From: Mobula hypostoma
Taxonomy: Eukaryota
Assembly: GCF_963921235.1 (NCBI RefSeq)
Contig: NC_086097.1
Span: forward strand, 169,138,001-169,202,000
Reading direction: 5' to 3'
DNA: 64,000 bases
Notes under the pieces: generated by a model
Database searches by the model: none
What the model was told of the DNA's origin: nothing
Seen by the model: the letters and a program-made list of their open reading frames with translations, nothing else
Program-made: the position numbers and the translations under genes
Part shown: piece by piece, positions 1,644 to 61,592 of the stretch
How positions within the stretch are numbered: position 1 is the stretch's first letter
Layout: each line of letters opens with the position of its first letter

Positions 1644-3120
1644 CAACCCTTCTCAACCATTTTGCCCTAGAGGACCCCTTGAAATAAGTTTCAGGTCTCA
1701 GGGAACAACTGCATAAAAATTATTATATCTATAGCTCACAGTACATTAGTGTCATCAGTAAGTTGTAGATATAATCAAAAATATTTGACAATGCTCTTTT
1801 GAGTAAAGAATGATTTTTTAGCTTACCTTTCTTGAAATTAATCTCTTTCTTTCCCTTTCATAAATAACAAAAGCTCCTAAGGCAAACATAGTAAACTCCT
1901 CAATTCTGGGTCGCACTTGAGATAAACACATCAAGATTTTACCTTCAGCTGAAAAGAGTCAATTTCTATCCTTGCTCCTGATGCTTGTTAAACAAGAAAA
2001 GGCTTGCTCACATATGTAAGAAGTTGAAAACTGCTGCAAAATGTTCATTGCACTCCTATGAACGGCAGGATAGTCTTCTTTCACAGAATTCCAGAACTTG
2101 TCCATGGGATGGTCAGTAAATCTTATCTTGAGTGCAAGATCAGATAGTCATAGTCATAGTCATACTTCATTGATCCTGGGGGAAATTGGTTTTTGTTACA
2201 GTTGCACTGTAACAGGCTGCATGCACGACCGATGCAACTCACAAAGCTCTTCCTCCTCTTTCAAAGTCAAGTTCTTAGGCTCAGCAGAAGATTCAGAGAA
2301 AGGGTCCCTCACCCAGGCATACACTTGTGTTCAAAGAGACGAAAAATACTGTTCAATTTTGTTCTGCAGTTCTTCCAGGTGGATTTCAATCAGCCTCAAG
2401 ACCTTCTGATATCTTTTCTCACTCTCAAGCCCAAGCAGCAGTGAAAACATTTCAAGATTTCCTTTTGCAGCATGACTTTTCCAAAGATTATTTCCTTTTA
2501 AATCCAAGAATCTTGTCACTTAAAGTCAAAACATTTTCTCCAGGGCCTTGCAGAGACTTGTTCAACTAATTCATACAGCGAAAAATGTCTGTTAACTAGG
2601 CTAGTTTCTGCAGCCATTCTTTATCTTCAAAGCACTCAGCAAAACCTGGCCTACTATTTTCTTGAAAGTACTCCTACAATTCACCTTTCAGCTCAAACAC
2701 CCTGTTGAGAACTCTTCCTTTGTTAAGCCACCAGATTTCTGTATGAAGCAGGAGATTGTTGTGCTCCTCGTCCAGGTTTTCACACAGTTTTTTAAATGTT
2801 CTCTTGTGAACTGGTCTTAAAGTTACTAAATAACTTGCTTCCTGAACACTTTAACTGACTGGGACTTTATTTTCAAAAGCTTTTTTCTGTTTGTTTTGAG
2901 ATTCCAATAATCGTTTAAAATAATCAGCACTTTTATGTGTCATATGGCTACTATAATTACTTGCCTTTTCAATTTTGCTGGAGCCATTTCTACTTTTGTA
3001 AGTTGTTTGCCACAGACTAGGCACTATGGAATAGGACAACTTGGATCACCAGTCCATATAAAACCCATTTATAAATAGCTTTCATTGTAAAGACAGACTT
3101 CTTTTTGTGTCTGGTGTTGC
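1644..3120 (-). mobile_element. hAT (Charlie/Buster-like) transposon relic
   Basis: Broken transposase on the minus strand (WLNKGRVLNRVFEL, GNLEMF, FSTSYICEQAFS dimerisation motif) and a TIR-like caacccttctcaacc at 1644. Confidence 0.8.
2144..2236 (-). mobile_element. Short LINE 3' tail inserted in the hAT
   Basis: (catagt)n tail interrupts the hAT reading frame between ELCEL and SDLAL. Confidence 0.55.
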
Positions 3121-12900: not shown

Positions 12901-13763
12901 AGTACTCATTATAATAAAGTAATAGTATTTTCAGGAGTATTTGTGATAGCAAAATGTCTTGCCAATCTTACAACAGTGCGATACTTTCTGTTATATTTGT
13001 GAGAAGTATGCATTTAAATCTCAAAGACAGAGCGTGACTCCTGTTATTAAGAAAGCCTATGAGCTCTACTTTGGGTGTAAAATTGGCAACCAAGACTAAG
13101 CCTGAGCTCCTCACATTTGTTGTTCAACATGCGCTGTTGATCTTAGAGCCTGGCTCAGAGGTACTCGGAAGTCAATGCCACTCGTAGTCCTGAAGATATG
13201 GTGAGAGCAGAAGGATGATGAGATAGACTGCTTCTTCTGTCTGACCAGTGTGTATGGTTTCTCTGCTAAAAACAACAAATCCATTGATTACCCCAATGAC
13301 CCTTCTGCCAAGAGACCTGTGCCACATGATGATAGTCTTCCAGTACCGAAGACACCAGAGACATGGAGTCGAGAGGAGGCAGACGAAGATACACGAGCCA
13401 GGAATTGAAAATGACAACAATACTAACTGATAGATTTTGAACCCTTTATGTTGAGTAAGCCTCATCTGATAACTCAATCTGAGTTAAATGACCTGGTCAG
13501 AGACTTTGGTTTGTCAAAGGCAAAAACAGAATTACTGGGTCCAAGACTGCAAGGATGAAATCTGCTATCACCAGGCACAAAACTTGCCATCTTTCTCAGT
13601 TACTAAGAAGATATGACGCAATTCTTTGGGCAGGTTGATAATCTGTGTTTCTGTACTGACGTTAGTGGCTTTTGACTTCTTTGGGTTGCCAGCATGACCC
13701 ACAACAATGCCATATTTTTATTGATTCTTCAGTGTTAAGCCTGAAAGCTATGCTTTCCGATTT

Positions 13764-13965
13764 GCACTGCTGTCTGATTTGCAAATGAAACAACTTGGTG
13801 TATGCGAGCTGCATTCCTGTAGCAATGCTACTTCTTTCAGATTATCACAGATGTCCCAGTTGTAGTTGCTGTACTTATTACATACACTCTCTGTGGAGAT
13901 CGGCTGCAGAGGTTTCCCAGCCAAATCAGCATGTTGGTTGTTGTCAGATCTGAGCCTGGACAAAA
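13764..13965 (-). repeat. Inverted two-segment copy of 14305-14382 plus 14482-14605
   Basis: Reverse complement matches those two blocks, joined without the intervening 99 bp. Confidence 0.9.
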
Positions 13966-14057
13966 CGGCAATGTCCACCCTTCAATACTAATCGTCTATG
14001 CAGTACACATGAAAAAAAACACTACTGAAATTTGGAAGTCTTGTTGAAACACATATT

Positions 14058-14465
14058 CTCCAGTTACCTTATAAGGTAACCGTAGCCTTCAGCCAGAAGC
14101 AGATGTCATTAGGTGGTTCCCAACCTTCACCGAGTGTTTCGACCCTTAAGTACAACAGTCTCCAGTTGGTGGGCAGGCAGTGGTGGCCAAATCACTGCCC
14201 ATCTGCTCCTGGCTTCCAGCTTCCCTCCTCTCGCCTACTCCAAATCCAACAAGAGGCTCGTTCTGCCTCTTCCCCCATCCTATGAGCTGCTTGTTTTTTG
14301 CTCCTTTTGTCCAGGCCCAGATCTGACAACAACCACCATGCTGATTTGGCTGGGAAACCTCTGCAGCCGATCTCCACAGAGAACCACCATGCCTGCCATC
14401 CCTTGTCTTTACACTCCTGCACTTAGAGCTGGTACTTCAAGGCCTTTCTCTCGTGGGCCTCTGGA
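14058..14465 (-). mobile_element. HERO-like (RLE-type) non-LTR retrotransposon, 3' fragment
   Basis: EAHERKALKY...GWQAWWFSVEIGCRGF...EEAERASCWIW, the C-terminus of a restriction-like endonuclease, followed by a 3' UTR. Confidence 0.75.
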
Positions 14466-16034
14466 GAATGCACCCTAACAGGTGTATGTAATAAGTACAG
14501 CAACTACAACTGGGACACCTGTGATGATCTGAAAGAAGTAGCATTGCTACAGGAATGCAGCTCGCATACACCAAGTTGTTTCATTTGCAAATCGGACAGC
14601 AGTGCTAAAGAACCTCTTTACATTAAAAAGGACAGGCCACTCCATAACCAGTTGGTTCCAGGGCAGAAAAGTGTGGCACATAAGCCACTTATAGACCCAA
14701 AAAAGATATTTTTGCATCCTCTTCATATAAAACTGGAGCTCATAAAAAATCTGTGAAAGCGATGAATAAGGAAGTTGAAGGATTTTGATATCTAAGACAG
14801 ATAATTCCCAAAATAACTGGTGCCAAGAATAAGGAAGGCATTTTTGTTGGTCCACAAGTCAAACAGATCACCAATGACAGGCATTTTGAAGTACTTCTAA
14901 TGGGACTGGAGAAAATTGGAGGGAAGGCATTCAAGGATGTTGTTGAAAATTTTCTTGACAACTAGAGCACCAAGCTGTATGCAGCTGGTTGACAAATTGT
15001 TTCAAGCATACAAAACCATGAAGTGATGAAGTGCAACATGTCACTAAAGAATTATTTCCTGCATTCCCATTCAGACATCTTCGATGCAAATCTTGGCGCT
15101 ATCAGTGATGAGCATGGTGAAAGATTTCAATAGGACACTGCAGTCATGGAGAAACAGTATCAGGGCAACTGGAATCCATCAATGCTGGCAGATTATTGTT
15201 GGACACAGTGAGAATCGGCGGACACTGAGTACAAACAAAAATCATCAACAGAATATTTTTAGCTTAGTTGAACTATTGCAAACTGTCAGCACTGTTATGC
15301 AATTAAATGCATTATATTCAATAAACGTTAATTCCATGTTTCTCCAGATGCCTACTTGATACAAGTAGTCTGAAATTATATTTGTGTTCAGCTTTAAAGG
15401 GTCTATCATAACTACAAAAGAATTCTGAGGAAGCAACACTTTTGAAAAAATTTATTGTCCGGTGCAATAATTTTGAATGTGACAATGAAAATGAAGATTT
15501 GATGGATACAATCATCAAAAGCATTGTATGAAGGCAGCCCATCATCTACACTAGGTGTCTGCTAATTTTGTTAATTTACAGTGTACACTGGATTAATTCT
15601 TCCATCAACAACTATTAGGAACTATTACACAGTTTCATAGTACTATAGTAGTATTTATAGTGTTCTAATTTGCTCTGTATTTCATTTAAATACATAATTT
15701 GTTACTCAGTTAAAAAGTAGTTTGCCTTTTTTTATTTACCTTTTTAACTATTTCCATGAAACTTCGGTTAATTGGTGCAGGTGCTTAATTGGACCAAAAT
15801 ATACTGGTCGGGATGTGTCCCTATGCACTGTATTCCCACAAGCCTTCTTTTGGGTGGCAGAGGTTTCCGATTTGGGAGCCAGCACAAATCATTTGGGAAG
15901 TGAAAACTGGTATTTGCAGAAAGTGAATGTTAAGTCTGAAGACACAATGCCAAACCACAGGTTGTTTTACTCTGGTGGTGTCAAGCTTCTTGGTTGTTAC
16001 AGAGACAGAATTTGCTGCAGGTACTGCACCTAGA

Positions 16035-17625: not shown

Positions 17626-19353
17626 GTTAAATCAACATATGTCATGAAATGGCAAAATGTGAAGTCATCAACTAACTTTAAAATATTTCGTAACATTTTC
17701 TGTAAAGTATTTTTGGAAAGGGAACTGAGATTTGGTTGTCACTAATTTACTGGATATGTGATGAGTAGTACTTGCACTCTGTTAACATTACTCTTGTTGA
17801 AGTACTCTCAATTACACATCTTATCAAAATACAGAGCCACCATACTCTTAATAACTCAGTGAATTCAACAAATACTTTAAATTCTGTTTCATAATTTCAT
17901 TATACCCAAGACTTGACCTACATTGCGATCCTGTAGAAAATGAAAATTCAGCAATATTGGGACTCTTCTAAACTGCTTATTTTTCCAGGATCACTGGCCT
18001 GCATCTCTGCAACTTTCATTCTAGGTTACCCAACTCCAGACACTATACTCACCTGTTTCTCACCAGACACCATGAACCAAACTAAGTGCTTCTCTGGACT
18101 GAAGTAATGAATTGTTTTGCACCAACTGACATGTATTGCAAACAAAATCAATAGTTATTTGGGCAAAACTCTCTGGGATAACACAAACTTTGATGTTTCA
18201 ACAAGGTATTTTAAAATCTGTTATTTAGTTTAAGTTATTTTATCCCCAACAAATGAACGTGCCTACTGACATGTGAAACTTACCACAATCAATAGAAATA
18301 ATATTTCCCCATAATTTTGTTTGTTCTGCCCGAAATTAACTTTGAGTTCATCCTGCAATTTACTTAAGGCATTATTGTATCCTTCTCTTGTGTGAAAGGC
18401 TCTGAAGAGCAAGCAAAATAGATTGCAAAAGGAACTTATTTACAAAAATACAGATTCAATGTGGTTTTAGGAGGTACAGTCAAAGTGATTTTAAATTTTA
18501 GCCCCTGAAAGCCAATAATGGAGAGAAATTAAGTCTTAATGTAATAGATGGCATGGCAATCAGATCAGCTACTTTGACCTATTTGGAGACCTTCACCCTG
18601 GAATGCATAATTTCATCACCCGTCTCGCATAATAAGAAACTGAAGAAAGAGGAAGCCATTCTGCCCTTCACATCTCCTTGACTATTCAATAAGATCATGG
18701 TTGATTCTTTTACCTCAGCACCACGTTCTAGCATTCTTCGCAGCTAACAAGTCAAGGGTTATCAACTCAATGCAGAGTACCAAGTCTCTACCTTATTCTT
18801 GCAGTTGTCTGTATAAAGGTTCAGATAAATCTCTGGCCCATGACAAATTTTCCCACCATTAGAGTAATATTGAGTTATATTTGAGGACTGTAATGTCATA
18901 TAATTTTCAAGATAAGGTAGCGAGATTCCTTCTTATTTGAGGTGATCAATACCTGGAACATATTTGCACTACACTTCAGCTCAAATCAAAATATTGCCTG
19001 TGTCTTTATAAAAGAAGGCAGGATAACTTCATTGAACAACTGATATGACAGCCCCCAAACAAAATGTGTTTCCTTCTCCTGTTGGCACCATCACCTATTC
19101 TCCCCGCACTACCCAATGACTTCATGTTTACAGGGATTCCTTGCTGCTACATTACGTCATGGACACTGCTCTTGAACTGCCATTCCCTATCCCAAAAAGT
19201 CAAGCAAACAACTTTTAAAACCCTGATTAAAATGCAAAAAACTGCAAATGCTAGAAGTATAAAATAAAAACAAAAAATAATGGAAATATTCAGATCATGT
19301 AGTATCTAAAGAAGTGCCATTGACCTAAACTCATCAATCATTTCTCTCCAAAT

Positions 19354-24624: not shown

Positions 24625-25799
24625 GAGTGGTCCCCAACCACCGGGCCACGAGGAAACAATATGATTTGATGATATGAAACGATATGAGTCAGCTGCACCT
24701 TTCCTCATTCCCTGTCATGCACTGTTGAATTTTAACGCGCGCGAGGTCATCAGTGACCCAAGACATGCAAAGGAATAGGTCTGTGGCCCATTTGTGAATG
24801 TCCCCAGAGAATCATCCATGTCAGCGCGGGAAGAAGATCAACTCCTCGAGTTTGCAAATGACGGCGGGCTGAAAAGTATGTTTGACATAACATCTCTGCC
24901 AGCATTCCGGATCAAAGTCAAGGCTGAATATCTTGAGATAGCCACGAAATCACTGAAAACGTTGCTTCCATTTCCAACATATTTCTGCGAAGCGGAGTTT
25001 TCTGCAATGAATGCAACGAAAACTAAATTGCGGAATAGACTGGACATAAGGACCCTTCGAGTATCGCTGTCTCCCATCACCCCTCGATGGCATCATCTTG
25101 TTGCAGGGAAACAAGCCCAGGGCTCCCACTGGTTCAGCGATATTGGTATGTTGCAATGATTTTATATGTTCATACAAGGAAAATATGCGCTGTGTGTTTA
25201 ATATCCAAACGTTACTTAAAATGTTATGATGCTATTAACTTATAAGTGACTTATAATTCAGTGGTCCATAACCTCCGGGCCGCAAAGAATACCGTACAGC
25301 GGTGGCCGGAACACACCCAGCACATCTTTAAGAAAAAAGCCGAAATAAACAAGCTAATTAATTAGGTGCCGCCCAGCACGTAAATGTCGGCCCAGATCAG
25401 AGACGATTGCCGATTGCGTCGTCTCTGATCTGGGCGGACATTTACGTGTCAGGCAGCACCTAATCAATTAGCTTGTTTATTTCGGCTTTTTTCTTAAAGA
25501 TGTGTTGGGTGCATTCTTGCTACAGCTGTACCGCTGCATTCTTCGCGGCCCAGAGGTTTGGGACCACTGTTATAATTGACTTATCACTACATTCATGCGA
25601 GGAAAATATGCGCTGTGTGTTTAATATTAAATTCGTTAGATAAACCCCTTTAGAAATGAAATTGAGTGTATTAGCCACTTACAAGTGACGTATAGTTGAC
25701 TAATTACCTATATTCTGGTCGTGTTTAACACCCCCCACCACCCCCCGTCAGGTGGTCCGCAAGAATATTGTCAATATTAAACCAGGCTGGGGGCCCCTG
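24625..25799 (+). mobile_element. hAT (Charlie-like) deletion derivative
   Basis: ORF 24794-25159 with LLPFPTYFCEAEFSAM..KTKLRNRLD (hAT dimerisation domain); TIR-like ends gagtggtccccaacc / ggctgggggcccctg. Confidence 0.8.
25259..25569. mobile_element. 311-bp palindromic hAT MITE
   Basis: cagtggtcc...ggaccactg with near whole-length self-complementarity; perfect 8-bp TSD ttataatt at 25251-25258 and 25570-25577. Confidence 0.92.
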
Positions 25800-29691: not shown

Positions 29692-30357
29692 TAAGCAACA
29701 CACATCAAAGTTGCTGGTGAACACAGCAGGCCAGGCAGCATCTCTAGGAAGAGGTACAGTCGACGTTTCGGGCCGAGACCCTTCGTCAGGACTAACTGAA
29801 GGAAGAGCTAGAAAGAGATTTGAAAGTGGGAGGGGGAGGGGGAGATCTGAAATGATAGGAGAAGACAGGAGGGGGAGGGATGGAGCCAAGAGCTGCACAG
29901 GTGATTGGCAAAAGGGACATTAGAGGATCATGGGCCAGGAGGCCCAGGGAGAAGAAAAAGGGGGAGGGGGGGAAAAACCCAGAGGATGGGCAAGGGGTAT
30001 AGTTAGAGGAACAGAGGGAGAAAAAGGAGAGAGAGAGAAAGAATGTGTGTATATAAATAAATAACGAATGGGGTACGAGGGGGAGGTGGGGCATTAGCGG
30101 AAGTTAGAGAAGCCAGTGTTCATGCCATCAGGTTGGAGGTGACCCAGGCGGAATATAAGGTGTTGTTCCTCCAACCTGAGTGTGGCTTCATCGTTACAGT
30201 AGAGGAGCCTGTGGATAGACATATCAGAATGGGAATGGGACGTGGAATTAAAATGTGTGAGATGCTGCCTGGCCTGCTGCGTTCACCAGCAACTTTGATG
30301 TGTGTTGCTTGAATTTCCAGCATCTGCAGAATTCCTCGTGTTTGCGTTTTTAATTTC
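29692..30357 (-). mobile_element. Penelope-like element (GIY-YIG C-terminus and pLTR) with inverted 5' pLTR and tail
   Basis: HFNSTSHSHSDMSIH.LL...LRLEEQHLIFRLG.LQPDGMN on the minus strand; inverted pLTR piece at 30260-30350; 10-bp TSD acttcacact at 29682-29691 and 30358-30367. Confidence 0.9.
29758..29793 (-). ncRNA. Minimal type I hammerhead ribozyme in a PLE pLTR
   Basis: Minus strand reads AGTC-CTGACGA-A-GGGT CTCG GCCC-GAAA-CGTC^GACT: intact core, stems I and II, loopless palindromic stem III. Confidence 0.8.
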
Positions 30358-31625
30358 ACTTCACACTCATCTGGGTTGAACTCCATTTGCCACTTTTCAG
30401 CCCAGCTTTGCATCCTATCAATATCCCACTGTAATCTCTGACAGTCCTCCACACTATCCACAACACCCCCAACCTTTGTGTCATCAGCAAATTTACTAAC
30501 CCATCCCTCCACTTCTTCATCCAGGTCATTTATAAAAACCACAAAGAGTAGGGGTTCCAGAACAGATCGCTGAGGCACACCACTGCTGACCGACCTCCAT
30601 GCAGAATATGACCCATTTACAACCACTCTTTGCCTTCTATGGGCAAGCCAGTTCTGGATCCACAAAGCAAGTTCCCCTTGGATCCCATGCCTCCTTACTT
30701 TCTCAATAAGCCTTGCATGGGGTACCTTGTCAAATGCCTTGCTGAAATCCATATACACTACATCTACTGCTCTTCCTCATCAATGTGTTTAGTCACATCC
30801 TCAAAATATTCAATCAGGCTCGTAAGGCTGTAAGTCATCCCTACAATTGCCAAGATCCTTTTCCATAGTGAATACTGAAGCAAAGTACTCATTAAGTACC
30901 ACTGCTATCTCCTCTGTTTCCATACACACTTTTCCACGGTCACACTTGATTGTTCCTATTCTCTCACGTCTTATCTTCTTGCTCTTAACATACTTGTAGA
31001 ATGCCTTGGAGTTTTCCTTAATCCTCTCTGCCAAGGACTTCTCATGGCTCCTTCCGGCTCTCCTAATTTCTTTCTTGAGCTCCTTCCTGCTAGCCTTATA
31101 ACCTTCTAGCTCTCTATCATTACCTGGCCTTTTGAACCTTTCATAATCTTTTCTTTTCTTCTTGACTAGATTTATAACAGCCTTTGTACACCACGGTTCC
31201 TGTATCTTACCATCCTTTCCCTGTCTCATTGGAACGTACCTATGCAGAACTCCACGCAAATAACCCCTGAGCATTTGCCACATTTCTTCCATACATTTCC
31301 CCGAGAGCATCTTGAAAGATCATAACCAAGAAAGATTATTTCTTCAGCAACCTCTCTCAAGACTCTGGGATGTAGTCCATCTGGCCCAGGTGATTTATCC
31401 ACCTTAAGACCTTTGAGGTTGCCCAGCACTTTTTTCTTTGTAAAAGCAATGACACTCACTCCTGCTCCCTGACACTCGTGGACCTCTGGCACACTGCTAG
31501 TATCTTCCACAATGAAGACTGATGCAAAGTACCTACTGGAAGTTCATCTGCAATTTCTTTTTCCCCATCACTACCTCAACACCATCATTTTCCAGTGGTC
31601 CAATATCAACTCTCACCTCCCTTTT

Positions 31626-31755
31626 AATCATATAACCATATAACAATTACAACATCGAAACAGGCCATCTCGGCCCTTCTAGTCCATGCCAAACTCTTAC
31701 TCTCACCTAGTCCCACTGACCTGCACTCAGCCCATAACCCTCCATTCCTTTCCTG
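31626..31755 (-). mobile_element. Short CR1 3' tail insertion
   Basis: (catataac)n tail and gaaacaggccatctcggccc 3' UTR interrupt the host CR1. Confidence 0.7.
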
Positions 31756-31919
31756 CTCTTTACTCTTTATATAACTGAAAAATCTTTTAGTATTCTGCTT
31801 TATACTACTGGCCAGTCTCATATTTCAACTTTTCCCTTCTTATAGCTTTTTAGTTGCTTTTTGTTGGATTTTAAAAGCTTCCCAATCATCCAATTTCCCA
31901 CTCACTTTACTACTATATA

Positions 31920-33538
31920 CTGTGGCATGCAAAAGTTTGGGCACCCGTGGTCAAAATTTCTGTTATTGTGAATCACTAAGCGAGTAAAAGATGACCTGAT
32001 TTCCAAAAGGCATAAAGTTAAAGATGACACATTTCCTTAATATTTTAAGCAAGAAAACTTTTTTATTTCCATCTTTTACAGTTTCAAAATAACAAAAAAG
32101 GAAAAGGGCCTGAAGTAAAAGTTTGGGCACCCTGCATAGCAGTACTTAGTAACACCCTCTTTGGCAAGTATCACAGCTTATAAACGCTTTCTGTAGCCAG
32201 CTAAGAGTCTTTCAATTCTTGTTTGGGGGATTTTCGCCCATTCTTCCTTGCAAAAGGCTTCTAGTTCTGTGAGATTCTTGGGCTGTCTTGCATGCACTGC
32301 TCTTTTGAGGTCTATCCACAGATTCACGATGATGTTTAGGTCAGGGGACTGTGAGGGCCATGGCAAAACCTTCAGCTTGCGCCTCTTCAGGTAGTCCACT
32401 GTGGATTTTGAGGTGTGTTTAGGATCATTATCCTGTTGTAGGAGCCATCCTCTTTTCATCTTCGGCTTTTTTACAGACGGTGTGATGTTTGCTTCCAGAA
32501 TTTGCTAGTATTTAATTGAATTCATTCTTCCCTCTACCGGTAAATGTTTCCCGTGCCACTGGCTGCAACACAAGCCCAAAGCATGATCGATCCACCCCCG
32601 TGTGCTTAACAGTTGGAGAGGGGTTCTTTTCATGAAATTCTGCACCCTTTTTTCTCCAAACATACCTTTGCTCATTGCAGCCAAAAAGTTCTATTTTAAC
32701 TTCATCAGTCCACAGGACTTGTTTCCAAAATGCATCAGGCTTGTTTAGATGTTCCTTTGAACCTTTAGAATAGAACTTTTTTGGCCGCAATGAGCAAAGG
32801 TATGTTTGGAGCAAAAAGGGTGCAGAATTTCATGAAAAGAACCCCTCTCCAACTGTTAAGCATGGGAGTGGATTGATCATGCTTTAGTCTTGTGTTGCGG
32901 CACGGGGAACATTTACTGGTAGAGGGAAGAATGAATTCAATTAAATACCAGCAAATTCTGTAAGCAAACATCACACCGTCTGTAAAAAAGCCAAAGATCT
33001 AAAGAGGATGGCTCCTACAACAGGATAATGATCCTAAACACAACTCAAAATCCACAATGGATTACCTCAAGAGGCTCAAGCTGAAGGTTTTGCCATGGCC
33101 CTCTCAGTCCCCCGACCTAAACATCATCGAAAATCTGTCAATAGACCTCAAAAGAGCAGTGCATGCAAGATGGCCCAAGGACCTCACAGAACTTAGAAGC
33201 CTTTTGCAAGGAAGAATGGACGAAAATCTCCCAAACAAGAATTGAAAGACTCTTAGCTGGCTACAGAAAGTGTTTACAAGCTGTGATACTTGCCAAAGGG
33301 GGTGTTACTAAGTATTGACCATGCAGGGTGCCTAAACGTTTGCTTCGGGCCCTTTTCCTTTTTTGTTATTTTGAAACTGTGAAAGATGGAAATAAAAAAG
33401 TTTTCTTGCTTAAAATATTAAAGAAATGTGTCATCTTTAACTTCATGCCTTTTGAAAATCAGTTCATCTTTTACTCACTTAGCTATTCACAGTAACAGAA
33501 ATTTTGACCACGGGTGCCCAAACTTTTGCATGCCACTG
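31920..33538. mobile_element. Fold-back Tc1/mariner element made of two inverted 3' halves
   Basis: TA|ctgtggcatgcaaaagtttgggcacc ... ggtgcccaaacttttgcatgccactg|TA; QQDNDPKH and WPSQSPDLN encoded on both strands; IR/DR-type inner repeat near 32117. Confidence 0.95.
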
Positions 33539-35039
33539 TATGCCCTTTCCTTGGCTTTTATGTAGTCCTTAACTTCCCTTGTCAGCCATGGTTGTCGACC
33601 CCTGCTATTTGAGAACTTCTTTCACTCTGGAACATATCTATCCTGCACCTTGTGAACTATTCCCAGAAACTTCAGCATCTCTGCTCTGCCGTCATCCCCA
33701 CCAGTATTCTCTCCTCCAGTCGACCTGGACAAGCTTCTCTCTCATGCCTCTGTAATTCCCTTTATTCCATTGCAATACTGATACATGTTACTTATGCTTC
33801 TCCCTCTCAAATTACAGTATGAATTCAATCATATTGTGATCACTGCCGCCTAAGGATTCCTTTACATTAAGCTCTTTCTAAAGATGTAATTCCATCTCTT
33901 ACCAAGAGAACCACACCACTGCCTATGCCTTCCTTTCAATATGAAGTATACCCTTTGATGTTAAGCTCTCAACTATGGTCTTCTTTCAGCCAAGCCTTAG
34001 TTATGCGCACAACATCATACTGACCAATCTCTAGCTCTGCCACGAATTTGTCCACCTTATTCCAAATGCTACACACATTTAATACAGCACCTTCAGTCCT
34101 GCCTTCTTTGCCCTTTTGAATTTCACCTCTGTGGTACAATTTAACTCTTTGCTCTATCTGCATTTGTACCAAATCATTGGCTTCTTTCTTACATTCATTT
34201 AACACCTATCATCTAGATGTAAATCTGCTGCTTCATCCTCAGCTCTATCATACTGGTTCCCATCCCCTGTCATATTAGTTTAAACCACTCCCAACAGTTC
34301 TAGTTCAAAATTGCCCATGAGAATATTGGTCCTCCTCGGATTCAAGTTCAACCCTTCCCTCTTGTACAGGTCACAGCAGCCCCAGAAGAGGTCCCAGACG
34401 TCTAGAAATCTGAATCCCTAGTCCCTGCTTGAATTCTTCAGTCACGCATTTATCTGCCACCTCATTCTATTCCAATCCTCACTGTCACATGGCACAGGCA
34501 GCAATCCTGACAATACTACCCTTGAGGTCCTGCTTCTCAGCTTCCTTCCTAATTCCCTGTATTCTGTTTTCAGGACCTCCTCCCTTTTTCCACCTATGTC
34601 ATTGGTACCAATATGTAACACGACTTCTGGCTGTCCACCTTCCCTTTTCAGGATATTGTGGACACATTCAGAAACATCGTGGATCCTGGCACCCACGAGG
34701 CAAACTACCATCCATGTTTCTTTTTCGCATCCACAGAGTTGCCTATCTGTCCCCCCTAACTATAGCGGTCCCTATTACTGCTGCCATCCACTTCAGTTCC
34801 CTCCCCTTCTGAGCTACAGGGCCAAAGGCATGGCTGCTCTTATGACATTGAAAGGTGGAAATAAGTGAATCCGTGTAAAAGATCAGTGGAGAGAAAACAT
34901 TCTCCAAGATAGTGGTGGAGGAATTCAAAATTAAATGAGACCCATGTGTCAATTTGTTATGGAATCACGCAAGGTCAAAAATCACCTGCTTCCACTCTGT
35001 TTCTGCAGATTCGGGGATGGTTGATATGGGATCTGCAGT

Positions 35040-35640
35040 CAGATGGGGATTGATAGGGCAAATGGACATGTTATTTGGAATGTGGTTCACCTCATCCATT
35101 TGACTTCTGCATGCTCCCATCATCTAGACTTGAAGTGCCTTATACTTTCCCAGATGTTCTTTCTCCATTCTGATTCAGCTGTACAACAAGGATTCCCATA
35201 TGAAGGAGCAGATGCTGCATATTTTGAGAATTTTCTTGAAGGTTTTCCCTAACCTCCTGGGAATATCTTGCTGTGTCAGAGCTCAAGTCAACTACTTGTT
35301 TCAGGAATCTAGAATCAGAAACATGGATAATGTGACTAACCCAGCAGAGATGGTTGACCATGTTCAGAGTCTTCCTGCTGGGAAACTGGCCTGGTGGAGA
35401 ACACTGGCACTGGCTCACCTATCCTGCTATTGGATCTGAAGGATCTGCAAAGACAGCATTGGTGGTATATCTGCAGGGCTTTGAGATATTTACTGTAGGG
35501 CACTTCTGTCCCTAAAGCACACAGAAGAACAGAGATCACTATGAGTTTAATGCCTAATCCAAGGTCTTGGTCTTCAAAGAGTTTTATTTCCTAAATCAGT
35601 CAAAGGCCGTACTAGCAGAACAGATGCACCGTGACTCTCA
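35040..35640 (-). mobile_element. Old RTE-clade LINE fragment
   Basis: LCWVSHIIHVSDSRFLKQV resembles the RTE ORF2 C-terminal WAGHV.RM...R.PKQ motif. Confidence 0.55.
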
Positions 35641-36639
35641 AGATATGGAAAGTGATCCATAATTTCCAATGTTTTGCCATAATTTCATCCAACAGTGGAG
35701 GAAATATGACAGACCAAATTCCCTACTCCTTCCACTACTTGTGTTCTTTTGCAACTTAATTTACCGGGGAATGGCTTTGAAAAGTTGATGCAGACCTTTG
35801 TCTTTTCAATGCTTAGTTTAGGATCCATCTTCAGTCACATTTAGAGAAAGAAATGTAGAATTATTTGGAACTCAGTCTCTGTATGTACATGCATAAATGT
35901 GGTTGAACTTGAAACCTGATGATCAAAGTTGGAGTGATGTAGTTCTGAGGTGGAGGTAAAGGTTAAATAGTTTCTTAATCATCCTGTAGATTAACTCTAG
36001 TGAGGATCTATTGAAGATGTAGTAATGATTGCATCCAAGATGACTGAAAAGGTCCCTGTGCTTGAGTGAACCTTGTCTGCACTGTCTAAAGATGTACTGG
36101 AGGAACACAAATTTTATGTCATCATTTAGTAGATAGAGACAGGAAATAAGTTTTAGAAAGGTGACCCTTCTGAAGCACCCTTGAATCATCCTTTCCTTTT
36201 GTAACAACTCATTTCTTTAGAAAAATTAAAAGTTGAACCCTCCATTACTTTCAGATTATGACAATTAATTCATTTATAATTATGCATTTCATATCTTTTT
36301 AATTGTCCCATTTACTGGGTAAAAAAATATTTAGCAATTCAGCCTGTAAATGACCCAAAAACGTCCATCAATAAAATTCGCACAAACCGAGCCGAGGTGA
36401 AATTTTAAGTTATTTTAAAATCAATATCGCATTGAGTAACTACCGAAGGTTTACTTCCAGATTTCAAATGGGTTTTATTTTGCTGTCACAAAGTGCTTTT
36501 GTGATGGTGTTCGGCTTATGTGATTACTGTGCTGTTGACTTTAAACTTAGGCCTGTCTGGCTAGCGCACAGACAACACATTCTGTGTTATTGCCCCAGTC
36601 TGGCTGCAACTCTCCTCCCTGTCTGGCTTCTATAGGAAT

Positions 36640-37230
36640 ACATAACGCTTTCATTTTCTCTCTCTCTCTCCTCTCCACGCCACAAAACCATTTCGCACCC
36701 CGCCAGCCATACCCTTGGAAATTATAAATGTATTTACCAGACACAAATCCAACTTAACCGTCTCCACCAGCCCTCCTGCTCCTCTGATCGTGAGTACATG
36801 ACAGCAAGCCTCACTCAGCCCGGGGCTGCTGTCTGGCGCGGTGTCAGTCACCGACTGACTGATTGAGCGAGCGGCGCTCGAGCTCGCCTCCTCCCGGCTC
36901 GTGCCTCCTCCCCCTCCCCCCAACCCCAACCCCAACCCGCCCCCCCCCGGGCCAACCGTCCTAACCGTCTCTCGCTGCTACCTCCTCCTGTCGTCACCCC
37001 CCCACCCCAGACGGCCCGCTCAAGCTCCAGCCAGACAGTCACACAAGACGGGGTGGGGGGCGGGGGGTGTTGCAGGATGGCGGGGGGGGGAGGGAGGGGA
37101 AGGAAGCCAGTAACATTGAAGGAAAGATGAGCTCCTCCCCTTGGTTGTCGTCCGGCTCGTTCCGCCGCTGCACCGCCACCTGCAGGACTGGATGGAAGAT
37201 GACCCGCCGCTGGAACCAACTAAAGAGGGG
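36640..37230. promoter_or_regulatory. CpG island, probable promoter and first exon of the minus-strand gene
   Basis: The only CpG-rich non-repeat block in the window, with a GC box (ggggcgggg near 37058); candidate minus-strand donors ACG|gttaag (exon end 36759) or CTG|gtaaat. Confidence 0.7.
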
Positions 37231-37423
37231 TGGTGAGGAGGGGCACATAATGGAGATGCTCAAAATTTTGTGGAACATGGATGGGAGGTGAATTTTCCCC
37301 AGAGTATGACTGAGACACAGTGAAAAACTTGAGTTTTGCATGCCAAGCAGACAGATAATTGTCCTGCACAATTACATGAAGATAGTAAAAAGAAAACTGA
37401 AGTTCCAACACATTTTTTTTGCA

Positions 37424-37857
37424 TCAGAGTAGCCCGATTTGTCACAAATACCTATGAGACAGAAGCGAGTGTTACTCAACTTTTAAATTCATTAAAGTGG
37501 AACTCTCTCCAAGACAGACGTGAAGCACACTGCCTGACCTGTTTTTACAAAATGTTAAACGGTCAACTCAACATAGACTAACAATCCCACATCAAACCCA
37601 AACCTATTAGGAGCAGACGAGGGCACTCAACTCAATTTGAAATACTACCTACCAAATCAGATGTGTACAGCAATTCATTTTTCCCCTGCACAATTAAAGC
37701 ATGGAATAATCTTAATCCTAACAGTAACACAACCAAACCCAATTAAATTTAAGGCAGCTTTTCTTCTTCAAAAATCTCCTTCTTAAGCCTACCCTCCACC
37801 ACCTCCAGTTTAAATTCCATGCGGAATATTTTGGAGGATCAAGAACCAAGAACCAAG
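37424..37857 (+). mobile_element. Divergent CR1/L2-group LINE 3' end with a (caagaac)n tail
   Basis: RVARFVTNTY..EASVTQLLNSLKWNSLQDRR...CFYKMLN...RSRRGH...YSNSFFP.TIKAWNNL. Confidence 0.75.
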
Positions 37858-38239
37858 GGTCCAGTAGTAGTGTGACAGAAGGTGTCCTTGACATTGGAGG
37901 TATATGTTCTCAGGATTTTGTGTCTTCTGTTGGATGGGCAAGGGGAGAAGAAGGAATGACCATGGTGGGAGGGGTCCTTGATTATTATTTATCTGCTGTG
38001 ACAGATAAATAATATGGCATATTCACTCTTTTGTTATATACTATTAAGTAGGATTGTGATTGTGCTTTCAAACTCCACTTCAAATTTCTGTGTGTTCCCC
38101 TGCCCAGGAAGTATGCTGAAGTTACCTTGATGCTGAAAGGTATTGACTGCACACAATATTCCAGGTGTAGGTTAATGTTTTATAAACAGCATACTATAAC
38201 AGTCTACATTTGTTGAACATTATGTGAAGGCAACATTGT

Positions 38240-58399: not shown

Positions 58400-61300
58400 C
58401 TGTACCAATTTTGTCTGTCAGAGGAGGAGTTTAAGATTAGACCTCAAACCCAGCACAAAGCTCTTGCTATACCAAGCAGCAGTGATCCCTGCTCTCTTGC
58501 TTCTGATACATGGACTGCTTACAGCAGGCTCCTCAGACTACTAGTGGGTGCTACCATAACACTGTCTCCATAAAATCCATCAAATCCAAGGCCGGAGGAG
58601 CAACTCAATGTCAGCATCCTCTCCCAACATAAAGCCCATAATTTCAGTCAGCTCTGACGGATGGGCCATGTTGCTTGTATGTCAGACCCATGAAACAATA
58701 ATCTGTTCAGAACTCTTTAACAGTAAACACTACCAAGGTAAGTTCCCACAATAAGTTCTCCACAACTACTTTGTCAAGTGCATGCACCACTGCATTGTGA
58801 ATTCACTCGACTGCTGGGCGAATTACCAGACCTCACAAAGCCCACATACTCCACTATAGTCACAAAACATGGGGTTAAACACCACATTCCCACAACTGGC
58901 CCACCTGTCCATGCCCGCATGTGTAGATTGCACCCAGAAAAGCTAGCAACCGTGAAGGCTGAGTTGTCCAACAAGGAAAGACTTGGAATCGTACACCAGT
59001 TGAATAACCCCTGGGCTTCACTCCTTCATATGGTCCCTAAGTTTGATGGTGGTTGCCATCCACTGATGATTACCGTTGTCCTAACGAGGCCACCGCCCCC
59101 CGATTGTTACCCGGTACCATACATTCAAGACTCTTAGCCCGAATGTTAATTTTTTTTTCCAAAATTGATCTAGTTAGGGGCTACCATCAGGTGCCTGTGT
59201 GCTTGGAGGACATTCACAAAACAGCTGTGATAACCCCATTTGGCTTTTCTGAGTTTCAGCGCATGCTGTTCGGACTGAAAATCATAGCACAGACTTTCCA
59301 AAGGCTGGTGGACTCTGTATTAAAAGACTTAGATTTTCTTTTTGTCTACCTGGATGACATCTCTGCACATTTTTCAAGCATTTAAGCCAACACGGGTTGA
59401 TTATTAACCCTGCTAAATACCAGTTTGTGTTGTCAACCATTGACTTTCTCGACCATTGCATCTCCACAGGAGGTGCAAAACTCCTCCTCGTCAAAGTTAG
59501 CCGCTATTATGAATTTCCCACTACCCTGCACTACTAAACAGGAGGTTTTAGGCATGGTGAATTTCATCACCGCTTCATTCTGCTAGCTGCCGAACTTATG
59601 CTCCCCTGTATAGTGCATTTAATACCCCTAATCAAGTGCTTGACTGGTTAGCGGACATGACCAGGGCACTTGATGATACCAAATGAGCTCTTTCTCATGC
59701 AACTCTACTGGCGCACCTGCTCCCCAATGCACCCATAGCCATTACTACTGACGCCCCAGACCATGCTGTGGGTGCCAGGCATGAACAGCTGTCCGGAGGC
59801 GTTTGGCAGCTGCTTGCCTTCTTCAGTTGGCAGCTCCGTTCTCCCGAAAGAAAGTAGAGCATGTTTGACCTTGAGCTTCTCACTCTCTATCTGGCTGTCT
59901 GCCACTTCACAGCATTCATTGACCGCAATCCCCTCATGCATGGGGCTAGCCAAAGTATCACGGCAGCATGCATGGCAGCGACGCCACTTGGCCAACATAT
60001 CCAAGTTCACAACTGATGTACAACATATCAAGGGGAAAAATAATGCCACGGCCAATCCCTCTCACAGGCAGCTATTGAGGCCATACTCATAGTGGTGGAC
60101 AATGCTGGCACGGTAGCTGACGAACTTATTGACCCAGAGGTCCAAGCTTACCAAACAGCAGTCATGGGCCTGCGGTTGGCTAACATTAAGTTCAGGGAAG
60201 CTGGGGTTTCTTTCCTGTGCAATATCTCAAGCAGTTGTCCTCGCCCCATCAAGTCCACAAAATGGAGGTGGACAGTTTTTGACACCATACATGGCCTTTC
60301 ACATCCGGGCCAGAAGGTCTCACAGAAACAGGTTGTACTAAAGTTTGTTTGGCATGGCCTCAAAAAGGACGTGCATGATTGGATTGCAGCTTGTGTGCAA
60401 AAATTAACCTTCATGTTCAAGCACCATGGGCACCTTTTGAGGTCCCTGAGTGATAGTTTGACCATGTCAATGTGGACCTTGTTGGTCCTCTTCTCCTCTC
60501 CCATAGTTTCACACTACTTCTAACCATAGTGGACTGTACCACCAGGTGGCCAGAGGTTGTCTCTCTAGTATTGATGACAGCCTCAGATGAGGCTTAGGCG
60601 TTCATCAGCACCTGTGTTGCTCAGTTTGGCAGCCCATCTGATGTTTCCTCTGACCGCAGTCCTCAGTTCACTTCAGACCTCTGGGCTGTGACGGCCCAGC
60701 TCAGAACCATAGTGTCAGGATAAAACACACCACAGCATATCACGCGCAGTCAAATGGTCTACGCGAGCAGTTTCACTGCTTCCTTGACCAATGAGTGCTA
60801 GCATGATTGCTCCGTGGATCCTTCTGGGTCTTAGAACTGCTCCAAAAGAAGATCTCCATTCGTCCTCCACCAAGTTGGAATATGGGCAGCTGTTACGAGT
60901 GCCAGGTAGGTGACTTAATTCCTGTTGTCACGACCACCTGGACAGCCTCTCAACAGCGTTCCACCATCTTCGGTAAATTCAATTTCTTTTCACCTATTCC
61001 TACCACCCATCATGGTGTACAGCATTCTTGGGTCCTTGTTTGTTTTTATCCACCATGACGCACACCAACATCTCCATAGGCCCCCTTACAATGGCCCGTT
61101 CTACGTTTCGCATCAGGGAGAAAATACTTTTATGATTGATAAGAGGGGTAAACCTGAAAATATTTTAGTAGATCTCTTTAAACTAGCCTACCAAGATTTG
61201 GAGAATTCCACTGCCATGGCCCTGGCGTCACAACGTGACCATGAGCATGTCAATGCACCTCTGGACGAGCCAAAGGCACCTGTGTTTCCATCACCCATAG

Positions 61301-61592
61301 ACAAGGACCCGAATCAGGCAGCTCGTCTGAGCTCAGTACAGACTCACAATGCCGGTTTTAGTGAATTTTAGGATGCCTGTATACGGTAACGTAATTGGGA
61401 GAAATGTACATCATTCACAACCACACACATTGAGTTGACGTTTTGCTTTAAGAGTCTGGTCTGACATGATTACATTTTTACGTAAGGATTTTTTAGCATA
61501 CTTTTGTGTTTAGATTTTGGAGTTCAATAAAATGTGTAATGGGTTTCGTTAAACATAAAGCACCTCACTTCATTTTATTTGCATTAACCCAC
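58400..61592 (+). mobile_element. Gypsy/Ty3 LTR retrotransposon pol relic, with a probable 3' LTR at about 61378-61592
   Basis: Domain order RT (SKIDLVRGYHQVPV, YLDDI), RNase H (TTDAPDHAVGA, VQHIKGKNN), integrase (HGLSHPG, VDLVGP, SSDRSPQFTS, TTAYHAQSNG) and PPYNGPF; many stops and frameshifts. Confidence 0.9.

Follow-up and report, generated by a model that had tools for sequence, protein, structure and literature searches.

The locus at 31920-33538 raises the question of what an element built from two inverted 3' halves of a Tc1 transposon represents: a hairpin locus that silences its own family, comparable to Mu killer in maize, or one copy of a palindromic subfamily that moves as a unit. 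Both were put forward in the original prediction. The window, that is, the whole stretch of 64 kb that was analysed, contains this fold-back as the sole member of its family. The element is highly likely to be an old, decayed copy of a non-autonomous, amplified right-right DD34E IR/DR Tc1 subfamily in a myliobatiform ray. Its anatomy, its one duplicated TA, the high-copy common seam and the canonical copies found alongside are observed; the whole fold-back with its own TA pair is known from the window locus alone. The features, in window coordinates, are as follows.

31229-31917, minus strand: host LINE, ORF2 remnant, the part beyond the insertion, whose frame continues across the empty site
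31918-31919, no strand: left TA target-site duplication
31920-33538: fold-back element of 1619 bp, one unit with TA on each side
31920-32139, minus strand: left end, a 3'-type IR/DR terminal repeat, with DR cores at 31931-31946 and 32117-32132 and AATAAA at 32062-32067 (minus)
32142-32759, minus strand: left half, coding for Tc1 transposase from codon ~136 to codon 340 (pieces 84-95% identical to P0011 by tblastn; Pfam DDE_3, E=3e-9)
32700-32759, minus strand: unpaired loop that the right half lacks (codons 136-156); Asp153, the first catalytic Asp, lies at 32704-32706
32760-32768, no strand: 9-nt seam joining the halves, common to the high-copy subfamily, with A at 32767 in this copy
32769-33318, plus strand: right half, transposase codons 157-340 and stop (tblastn of P0011, 82-86% identity per piece)
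33319-33538, plus strand: right end, a 3' IR/DR terminal repeat of 220 bp, with DR cores at 33326-33341 and 33512-33527 and AATAAA at 33391
33539-33540, no strand: right TA target-site duplication
33541-34900, minus strand: host LINE remnant, the part before the insertion, with the ORF2 start and an esterase-like ORF1; high contig depth
36738-36886, minus strand: spliced exon, probably the first, of the host gene, CpG-rich, with a GT donor at 36737-36736

The arms, 31920-32699 and 32765-33538, are reverse complements, as had been predicted, with 93.4% identity over 771 aligned columns (K2P 0.070); they differ by 51 substitutions (36 transitions and 15 transversions) and 5 gap events. The halves are of unequal length (840 bp on the left, 770 bp on the right), and what had been described as a spacer of about 65 bp is really the continuation of the left half (32700-32759) followed by the 9-nt seam (32760-32768), with no foreign DNA. 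Either a near-copy of the adjoining CCTTTG or an eroded prolongation of the left half would account for the seam. In each arm, the outermost 220 bp form a normal 3' IR/DR repeat, and the symmetry is abnormal only over the inner ~550 bp. The ends had been called intact with their TA flanks; TA is present on both sides, but the left terminus reads CTGTGG and the right CAGTGG, a single substitution at position 2. The claim that both arms encode only the C-terminal catalytic region agrees with the tblastn search with P0011, in which codons 1-134, the DNA-binding half, matched nothing anywhere in the window. The left-half frame has two stops and two frameshifts, keeps Asp153 and Asp244 and has an altered Glu279, and the right-half frame has three stops and two frameshifts and lacks the first catalytic Asp153. 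The fold-back has no intact frame with a DNA-binding domain, such as an autonomous Tc1 possesses, and today it is inert as a transposon. Its organization is that of end replacement, one end being an inverted copy of the other that extends into internal sequence.

The parent family is represented by P0011, an intact Tc1 transposase of 340 aa retrieved by protein search, which is 95% identical over 108 aa to the left-arm frame; the closest named transposases, from Monopterus and Pseudophryne, are 87% and 83% identical over 108 aa. P0011 has a DD34E catalytic motif (Asp153, Asp244 and Glu279, with 34 residues separating the last two), and this transposase, the 220-bp repeats with two DRs and the TA duplication make the family a member of the Tc1 (DD34E) IR/DR group. 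Two changes relative to P0011, L233P and T181P, are common to both arms, and Leu233 is kept in the relatives printed in the alignments; the sharing of both changes favours duplication from one template that was already altered. Four related complete IR/DR elements from the fetched loci measure 1626-1657 bp, so the fold-back has the size of a normal Tc1-like element, as originally stated, and, judged by these relatives, is probably about as long as its parent. It has this length although half of the element has been replaced. In a protein comparison involving P0011, P0014, P0015 and P0019, this ray family has 83-87% identity with transposases of teleosts and frogs, which makes it a candidate for horizontal transfer. 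In one sequencing run (X1, below), the consensus of loose contig ends before 32778 runs from approximately codon 134 straight into codon 153, which hints at a family variant with an internal deletion of ~50 bp, although this consensus may be mixed rather than derived from a real deletion variant.

Relatives were also sought in other collections. No DNA of the ray Tc1 family was found in 93 related loci from prokaryote-genome and metagenome collections, the best segments being at most 68% alike, and none of the 92 related loci with a tblastn match (loci chosen for long matches) had transposase on both strands. The seam motif had no match in metagenome contigs, where ray DNA is not expected, in a search whose pattern carried the private A at 32767, and no relative of P0011 was found in viral contigs. 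Palindromes of 270-600 bp, 70-79% alike, lie in or beside three unrelated Tc1 loci (L018 4151-4753, L011 3697-4116 and L005 233-502), none of them with transposase on both strands. Loci L001-L013 are eukaryote-type Tc1 sequences on mostly short contigs of bacterial genome records, and are probably contamination.

The element interrupts a LINE, which we take to be CR1-type, and whose esterase-like ORF1 matches Lipase_GDSL_2 at E=3e-4, under the curated cut-off. When the element and one TA are removed in silico, the LINE frame reads through, save for a one-base loss a few codons further on, and an uninterrupted LINE consensus with a single TA is present in 73 contigs of another run (X9), before 33539. 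A single duplicated TA in a collinear LINE indicates insertion as one unit. Another LINE protein in the window has stingray proteins as its best named matches (87-88%), which places the host among the myliobatiform rays. Other parts of the window contain further repeats. An almost entirely palindromic MITE of 311 bp at 25259-25569, with an 8-bp target duplication TTATAATT and ends CAGTGGTCC, is hAT-type by its traits and sits inside a hAT remnant at ~24625-25700; a hAT transposase remnant is also present on the minus strand at 1962-3045 (Pfam Dimer_Tnp_hAT, E=4e-4). Within decayed DNA-transposon-like sequence at ~13500-15400, a local fold-back rearrangement at 13761-13965 and 14305-14608 consists of pieces of 127 and 78 bp (97% alike) that have been copied in inverted orientation. 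Decayed pieces on the plus strand at 58742-61371 presumably derive from an LTR-retroelement pol.

The LINE and its fold-back lie downstream of a transcribed exon. In X15, a presumed RNA run, letters 390-539 of a 539-nt contig match 36737-36886 with 0 differences, and the remaining 389 are located elsewhere. The match breaks off at a GT donor of the minus strand, and X15 gives no cover of the unique intron. The element is very probably in the first intron of a spliced minus-strand gene. The intronic placement originally proposed is borne out by the spliced exon and its donor, and the word "first" is read from the CpG-rich start. A possible short frame in the exon starts at 36799. Exon scans of the window found no later exon and no gene identity (a candidate at 18266-18439, and within it 18284-18401, had no protein match), Pfam searches of 30 of the 264 minus-strand frames returned only a hAT remnant, and Rfam gave no match over 30000-38000. 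In folding predictions, 32100-33400 forms one long hairpin at -1021 kcal/mol, a value with no shuffle control at this length. Host pre-mRNA transcribed through the element would likely be able to form an imperfect duplex of ~770 bp, which is a probable ADAR substrate. There is a poly(A) signal in each arm, so that one of them faces the host promoter.

The abundance of the seam was estimated from public sequencing runs. Assembled contigs of four of the 24 listed runs (X1, X5, X9 and X15) were mapped at likeness 88 onto 32690-37400, a region that runs from the loop and seam through the right arm and its flank to the upstream exon, and thus contains one arm of the element; the repeat contigs were 115-220 nt long. 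X1 may come from the assembled individual (2315 nt with 0 differences), whereas X5 and X9 come from other organisms. Depth at 32767, within the seam, was 140016 in X1 (94 contigs reading T), 76620 in X5 (85 contigs reading T) and 95700 in X9 (62 contigs reading T), against unique-intron depths of 9.61, 9.58 and 8.54, giving ratios of 14570, 7998 and 11206; summed contig depth is not true copy number, and these counts are to be read as orders of magnitude. A genome-wide copy-number check of the junction had been suggested, and the seam is far from single-copy, at ~8,000-15,000 times single-copy depth. Among the 32 pieces listed, with 115145 more outside the listing, at least three (one from X1 and two from X15) extend across the seam by 50 letters or more in both directions; they have 13, 9 and 13 differences from the window and therefore belong to other copies. 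No bridging piece among those listed is from X5 or X9, for which the seam evidence is the depth table. The expectation that the palindrome is no assembly mirror is confirmed by these bridging contigs from two runs and by the presence of the seam in two other organisms. Many copies share the same breakpoint, although their count is rough, and the fold-back subfamily appears to number ~10^4 copies, to an order of magnitude, in this ray and in its two relatives.

Canonical copies coexist with the fold-backs, as seen from contigs clipped at 32759 (37 in X1, 20 in X9 and 8 in X15) and at 32778; those that extend past 32759 continue into sequence encoding residues 125-135 of P0011. These canonical copies were considered as a source of the seam signal and rejected, as their clipping points lie on either side of 32767. 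Ungapped canonical copies would read C (left) or A (right) at 32767, where T is found in at least 99.8% of the depth and the window copy has A. A left copy with a gap would give T there, but it needs an insertion behind 32759, and none occurs among the best 12 of 39 gap rows. A second estimate compared the depth of the terminal repeat with that of the 3' frame, every copy having two terminal repeats and fold-backs alone having two 3' frames. It gave fold-back depths of 148755 (X1), 92675 (X5) and 129698 (X9), or fractions of 0.42, 0.44 and 0.63 of the family. The implied share of the family is 1.3-2.1% of run letters in the three runs, with ~0.5-0.9% for the fold-back. TcMar elements are given as 2.30% in rays (PMC12361510), a figure with which the implied family share agrees, as it does with one family copy in 64 kb. 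Contigs leaving the end at 33541 enter unlike flanks in 180 cases in X1 and 174 in X5, canonical and fold-back copies alike; these flanks are not assignable to fold-back copies, and both ends with their own TA pair are documented for the window copy.

A subfamily of this abundance could itself act on its parent. Some ~10^4 palindromes, thousands of them intronic, would supply double-stranded RNA directed at the transposase's catalytic half, and their rising dose would have shut the family down. This is unlikely. Copies would have been born as perfect inverted repeats of ~770 bp with a 69-nt loop, and would have made duplex RNA in either orientation, so that a parasite of the transposon became a self-spreading silencer; they would also rank among the main ADAR substrates in ray transcriptomes and would show, as a natural experiment, how far vertebrate chromosomes tolerate long inverted repeats. 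In X15, seam depth was 7166, or 0.051 of that in X1, and other repeat bins were at 0.020-0.043; as proof of transcription, this value was discarded because it is close to the proportion of other repeats and fits an intronic background or slight DNA carry-over. No contig linked the seam of the window copy to RNA. The ratio of places with A>G or T>C to places with C>T or G>A was 1.06 in X15 vs 0.86-1.00 in the three other runs; the change spectra of X15 and X1 gave Fisher p=0.42 and no clear A-to-G excess, in pooled contigs, which drop rare variants.

The seam could also have become abundant by some means other than transposition of the whole element, either because a piece bearing the seam was amplified in tandem or by segmental duplication, or because canonical copies were repeatedly converted in place at one fragile site. 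The mapped evidence consists of the seam and one arm, the whole element being documented in the window, and in Rhodnius the rearranged Rpmar17 copies mostly differ in their breakpoints and are unlikely to have descended one from another through transposition (PMC4678618). In the rays, however, depth is focused on one seam with common letters: in addition to the T at 32767 (99.8%), an extra T at 32777, which in this copy occurs only in the right arm, is common to ~70% of the X1 depth. The pieces are 7-10% apart, as expected of dispersed old copies, the seam depth matches the estimate from whole-arm depths, and the window copy has a clean TA duplication. We consider either of these routes quite improbable, and a mobile palindromic subfamily, as the second of the two original suggestions had it, best accounts for a seam found at very high summed depth, in diverged versions and in three organisms.

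The transposed subfamily may be traced back to a founder. Repair synthesis begun in the 5' terminal repeat would have switched to the 3' terminal repeat and copied 3' sequence inward, and end-joining would then have replaced the 5' half by an inverted 3' half of approximately equal length. Such a product would have kept two full IR/DR ends and could have been cut and pasted by the transposase of intact copies, rising to ~10^4 copies, near parity with its parent; its like ends or self-pairing arms may have helped by favouring synapsis. The window copy would have jumped as a unit into a TA of the intronic LINE, after which its arms decayed separately. At 21 right-arm sites that deviate from the family majority (sites among the best 40 of 358 rows), the left arm has the majority letter in 20; these deviations, private to the right arm, indicate that the arms began alike and decayed separately by ~3.5% each. 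The C shared at 33014 and 32442, where the family has T, was examined as a sign of arm-to-arm conversion and set aside, as 1 of 21 is within chance. Pieces of the unique intron show 39 differences from the window in ~2670 letters in organism B and 63 in ~1240 in organism C, a divergence suggesting that the insertion probably predates the splits from both; among the pieces listed, none runs across 33538 into the flank.

The proposed advantage of two like ends has precedents. Giving Mos1 two right ends raises its transposition 26-fold over the natural form, and Sleeping Beauty, too, is cited as preferring one end (PMC4505599). The Sleeping Beauty enhancer sits in the left repeat (PMC5224488), so that, by analogy, a right-right IR/DR element would not be expected to be favoured.

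According to the first of the original suggestions, the locus would be a silencer like Mu killer: hairpin RNA made from the host promoter would give rise to small RNAs that silence the Tc1 family in trans, and the locus would be kept for this purpose. The element does lie downstream of a spliced minus-strand exon, it is predicted to fold as a single long hairpin (32100-33400, -1021 kcal/mol), one of its poly(A) signals faces the host promoter, and a family transposase with an open frame exists (P0011). Like Mu killer, it has an inverted transposase duplication between two like TIRs, but here the ends are 3' ones. To our knowledge, vertebrates lack the class of RNA-dependent RNA polymerase to which Mop1 belongs. 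In maize, maintenance of silencing needs this polymerase (PMC1563492), and Mu killer is a single recent locus with two 5' (TIRA) ends and a live target (PMC3440606). The ray locus is one decayed copy among thousands of similar ones, and its arms have decayed independently, by ~3.5% each, with pairing not visibly kept (20 of 21 sites private). A role as a dedicated silencing locus is very improbable. It is hardly credible that the locus consists of two independent head-to-head Tc1 copies whose 5' parts went in a single local deletion, or that it is an assembly artefact. In favour of this, the arms differ by 7%, and Filee et al. propose deletion between adjacent copies as a founder origin (PMC4678618). 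Against it, the collinear LINE has one duplicated TA, derived changes are common to both arms, the same seam recurs in other copies and in three organisms, and the bridging contigs differ from the window. Deletion between adjacent copies may describe the founder rather than the window locus.

End-replacement derivatives of Tc1/mariner elements are known from insects. Rhodnius prolixus has two such mariner groups, Rpmar49 with 13 copies and Rpmar17 with 227 copies, the latter with varied breakpoints and mostly shorter than 1 kb (PMC4678618). As in the ray element, an inverted 3' part with homology to transposase stands in place of the 5' part, so that the TIRs are very long, and Rpmar49 was likewise amplified by transposition from one progenitor; however, both belong to DD34D mariner, a type with short TIRs (PMC4678618), whereas the ray fold-back is a vertebrate IR/DR Tc1 with one seam, about the size of its parent and ~10^4 copies. 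Goblin, which belongs to the Tc1/mariner element Ozma, is an Aedes aegypti MITE of 213 bp with 54-bp TIRs and 15 copies; as in the ray element, the sequence on either side of its junction stems from the right subterminal region, in unequal lengths (PMC3814204). For its origin, a template switch between TIRs, from left to right, during gap repair was proposed, with subsequent end-joining that left an insertion scar (PMC3814204). This model fits the ray fold-back. Goblin is far shorter and rarer. In Drosophila, seven mariner sublineages have undergone end replacement, and Dromar7, Dromar11, Dromar28 and Dromar36, in which one end is the inverted other end and the TIRs are long, are among the most successful sublineages; their authors suggest that long repeats may stabilise synapsis (PMC4161770). 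In these Dromar MITEs, it is always the 3' part that is replaced by the 5' part, and they are shorter than 1 kb with at most hundreds of copies (PMC4161770). TIR extension in Galileo is a looser parallel (PMC3573991).

The likeness to Mu killer lies in a partial inverted transposase duplication with two like TIRs beside a host promoter (PMC3440606); its single new locus, 5' ends, live target, proven silencing and plant maintenance pathway are neither shared by nor apparent in the ray fold-back. For the present effect of the ray copy, the palindromic Harbinger repeat of Xenopus tropicalis would be a better parallel than Mu killer, being dispersed and folding on itself in pre-mRNA with no need of an inverted neighbour (PMC5625713). 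That repeat is ~200 bp long and hyper-edited, whereas the ray arms are ~770 bp and contain transposase sequence. With Sleeping Beauty-type IR/DR Tc1 elements, the fold-back shares ~220-bp repeats with two DRs each, a TA target and a DD34E parent transposase of 340 aa (PMC5224488), but it belongs to a separate lineage and has no left end, no enhancer-bearing left repeat and no intact frame.

No account of a parent-sized palindromic Tc1 subfamily was found for cartilaginous fishes, or for any vertebrate at such a scale, in a search mainly of open-access main texts that left Repbase and Dfam outside its scope. In the human genome, long inverted repeats free of mismatches are described as mostly lacking, and as unstable once introduced (PMC12887540), which makes the scale of the ray fold-back noteworthy. 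The single window locus is unremarkable by itself. The success of a right-right IR/DR element is contrary to what the enhancer in the left end of Sleeping Beauty would suggest and is relevant to vector design, and thousands of self-folding intronic repeats would offer a direct test of ADAR load and hairpin-born silencing in vertebrates. End replacement is already known from short insect mariner/Tc1 families with tens to hundreds of copies, and the ray fold-back differs from them in its full size, its roughly parental abundance and its occurrence in a vertebrate.
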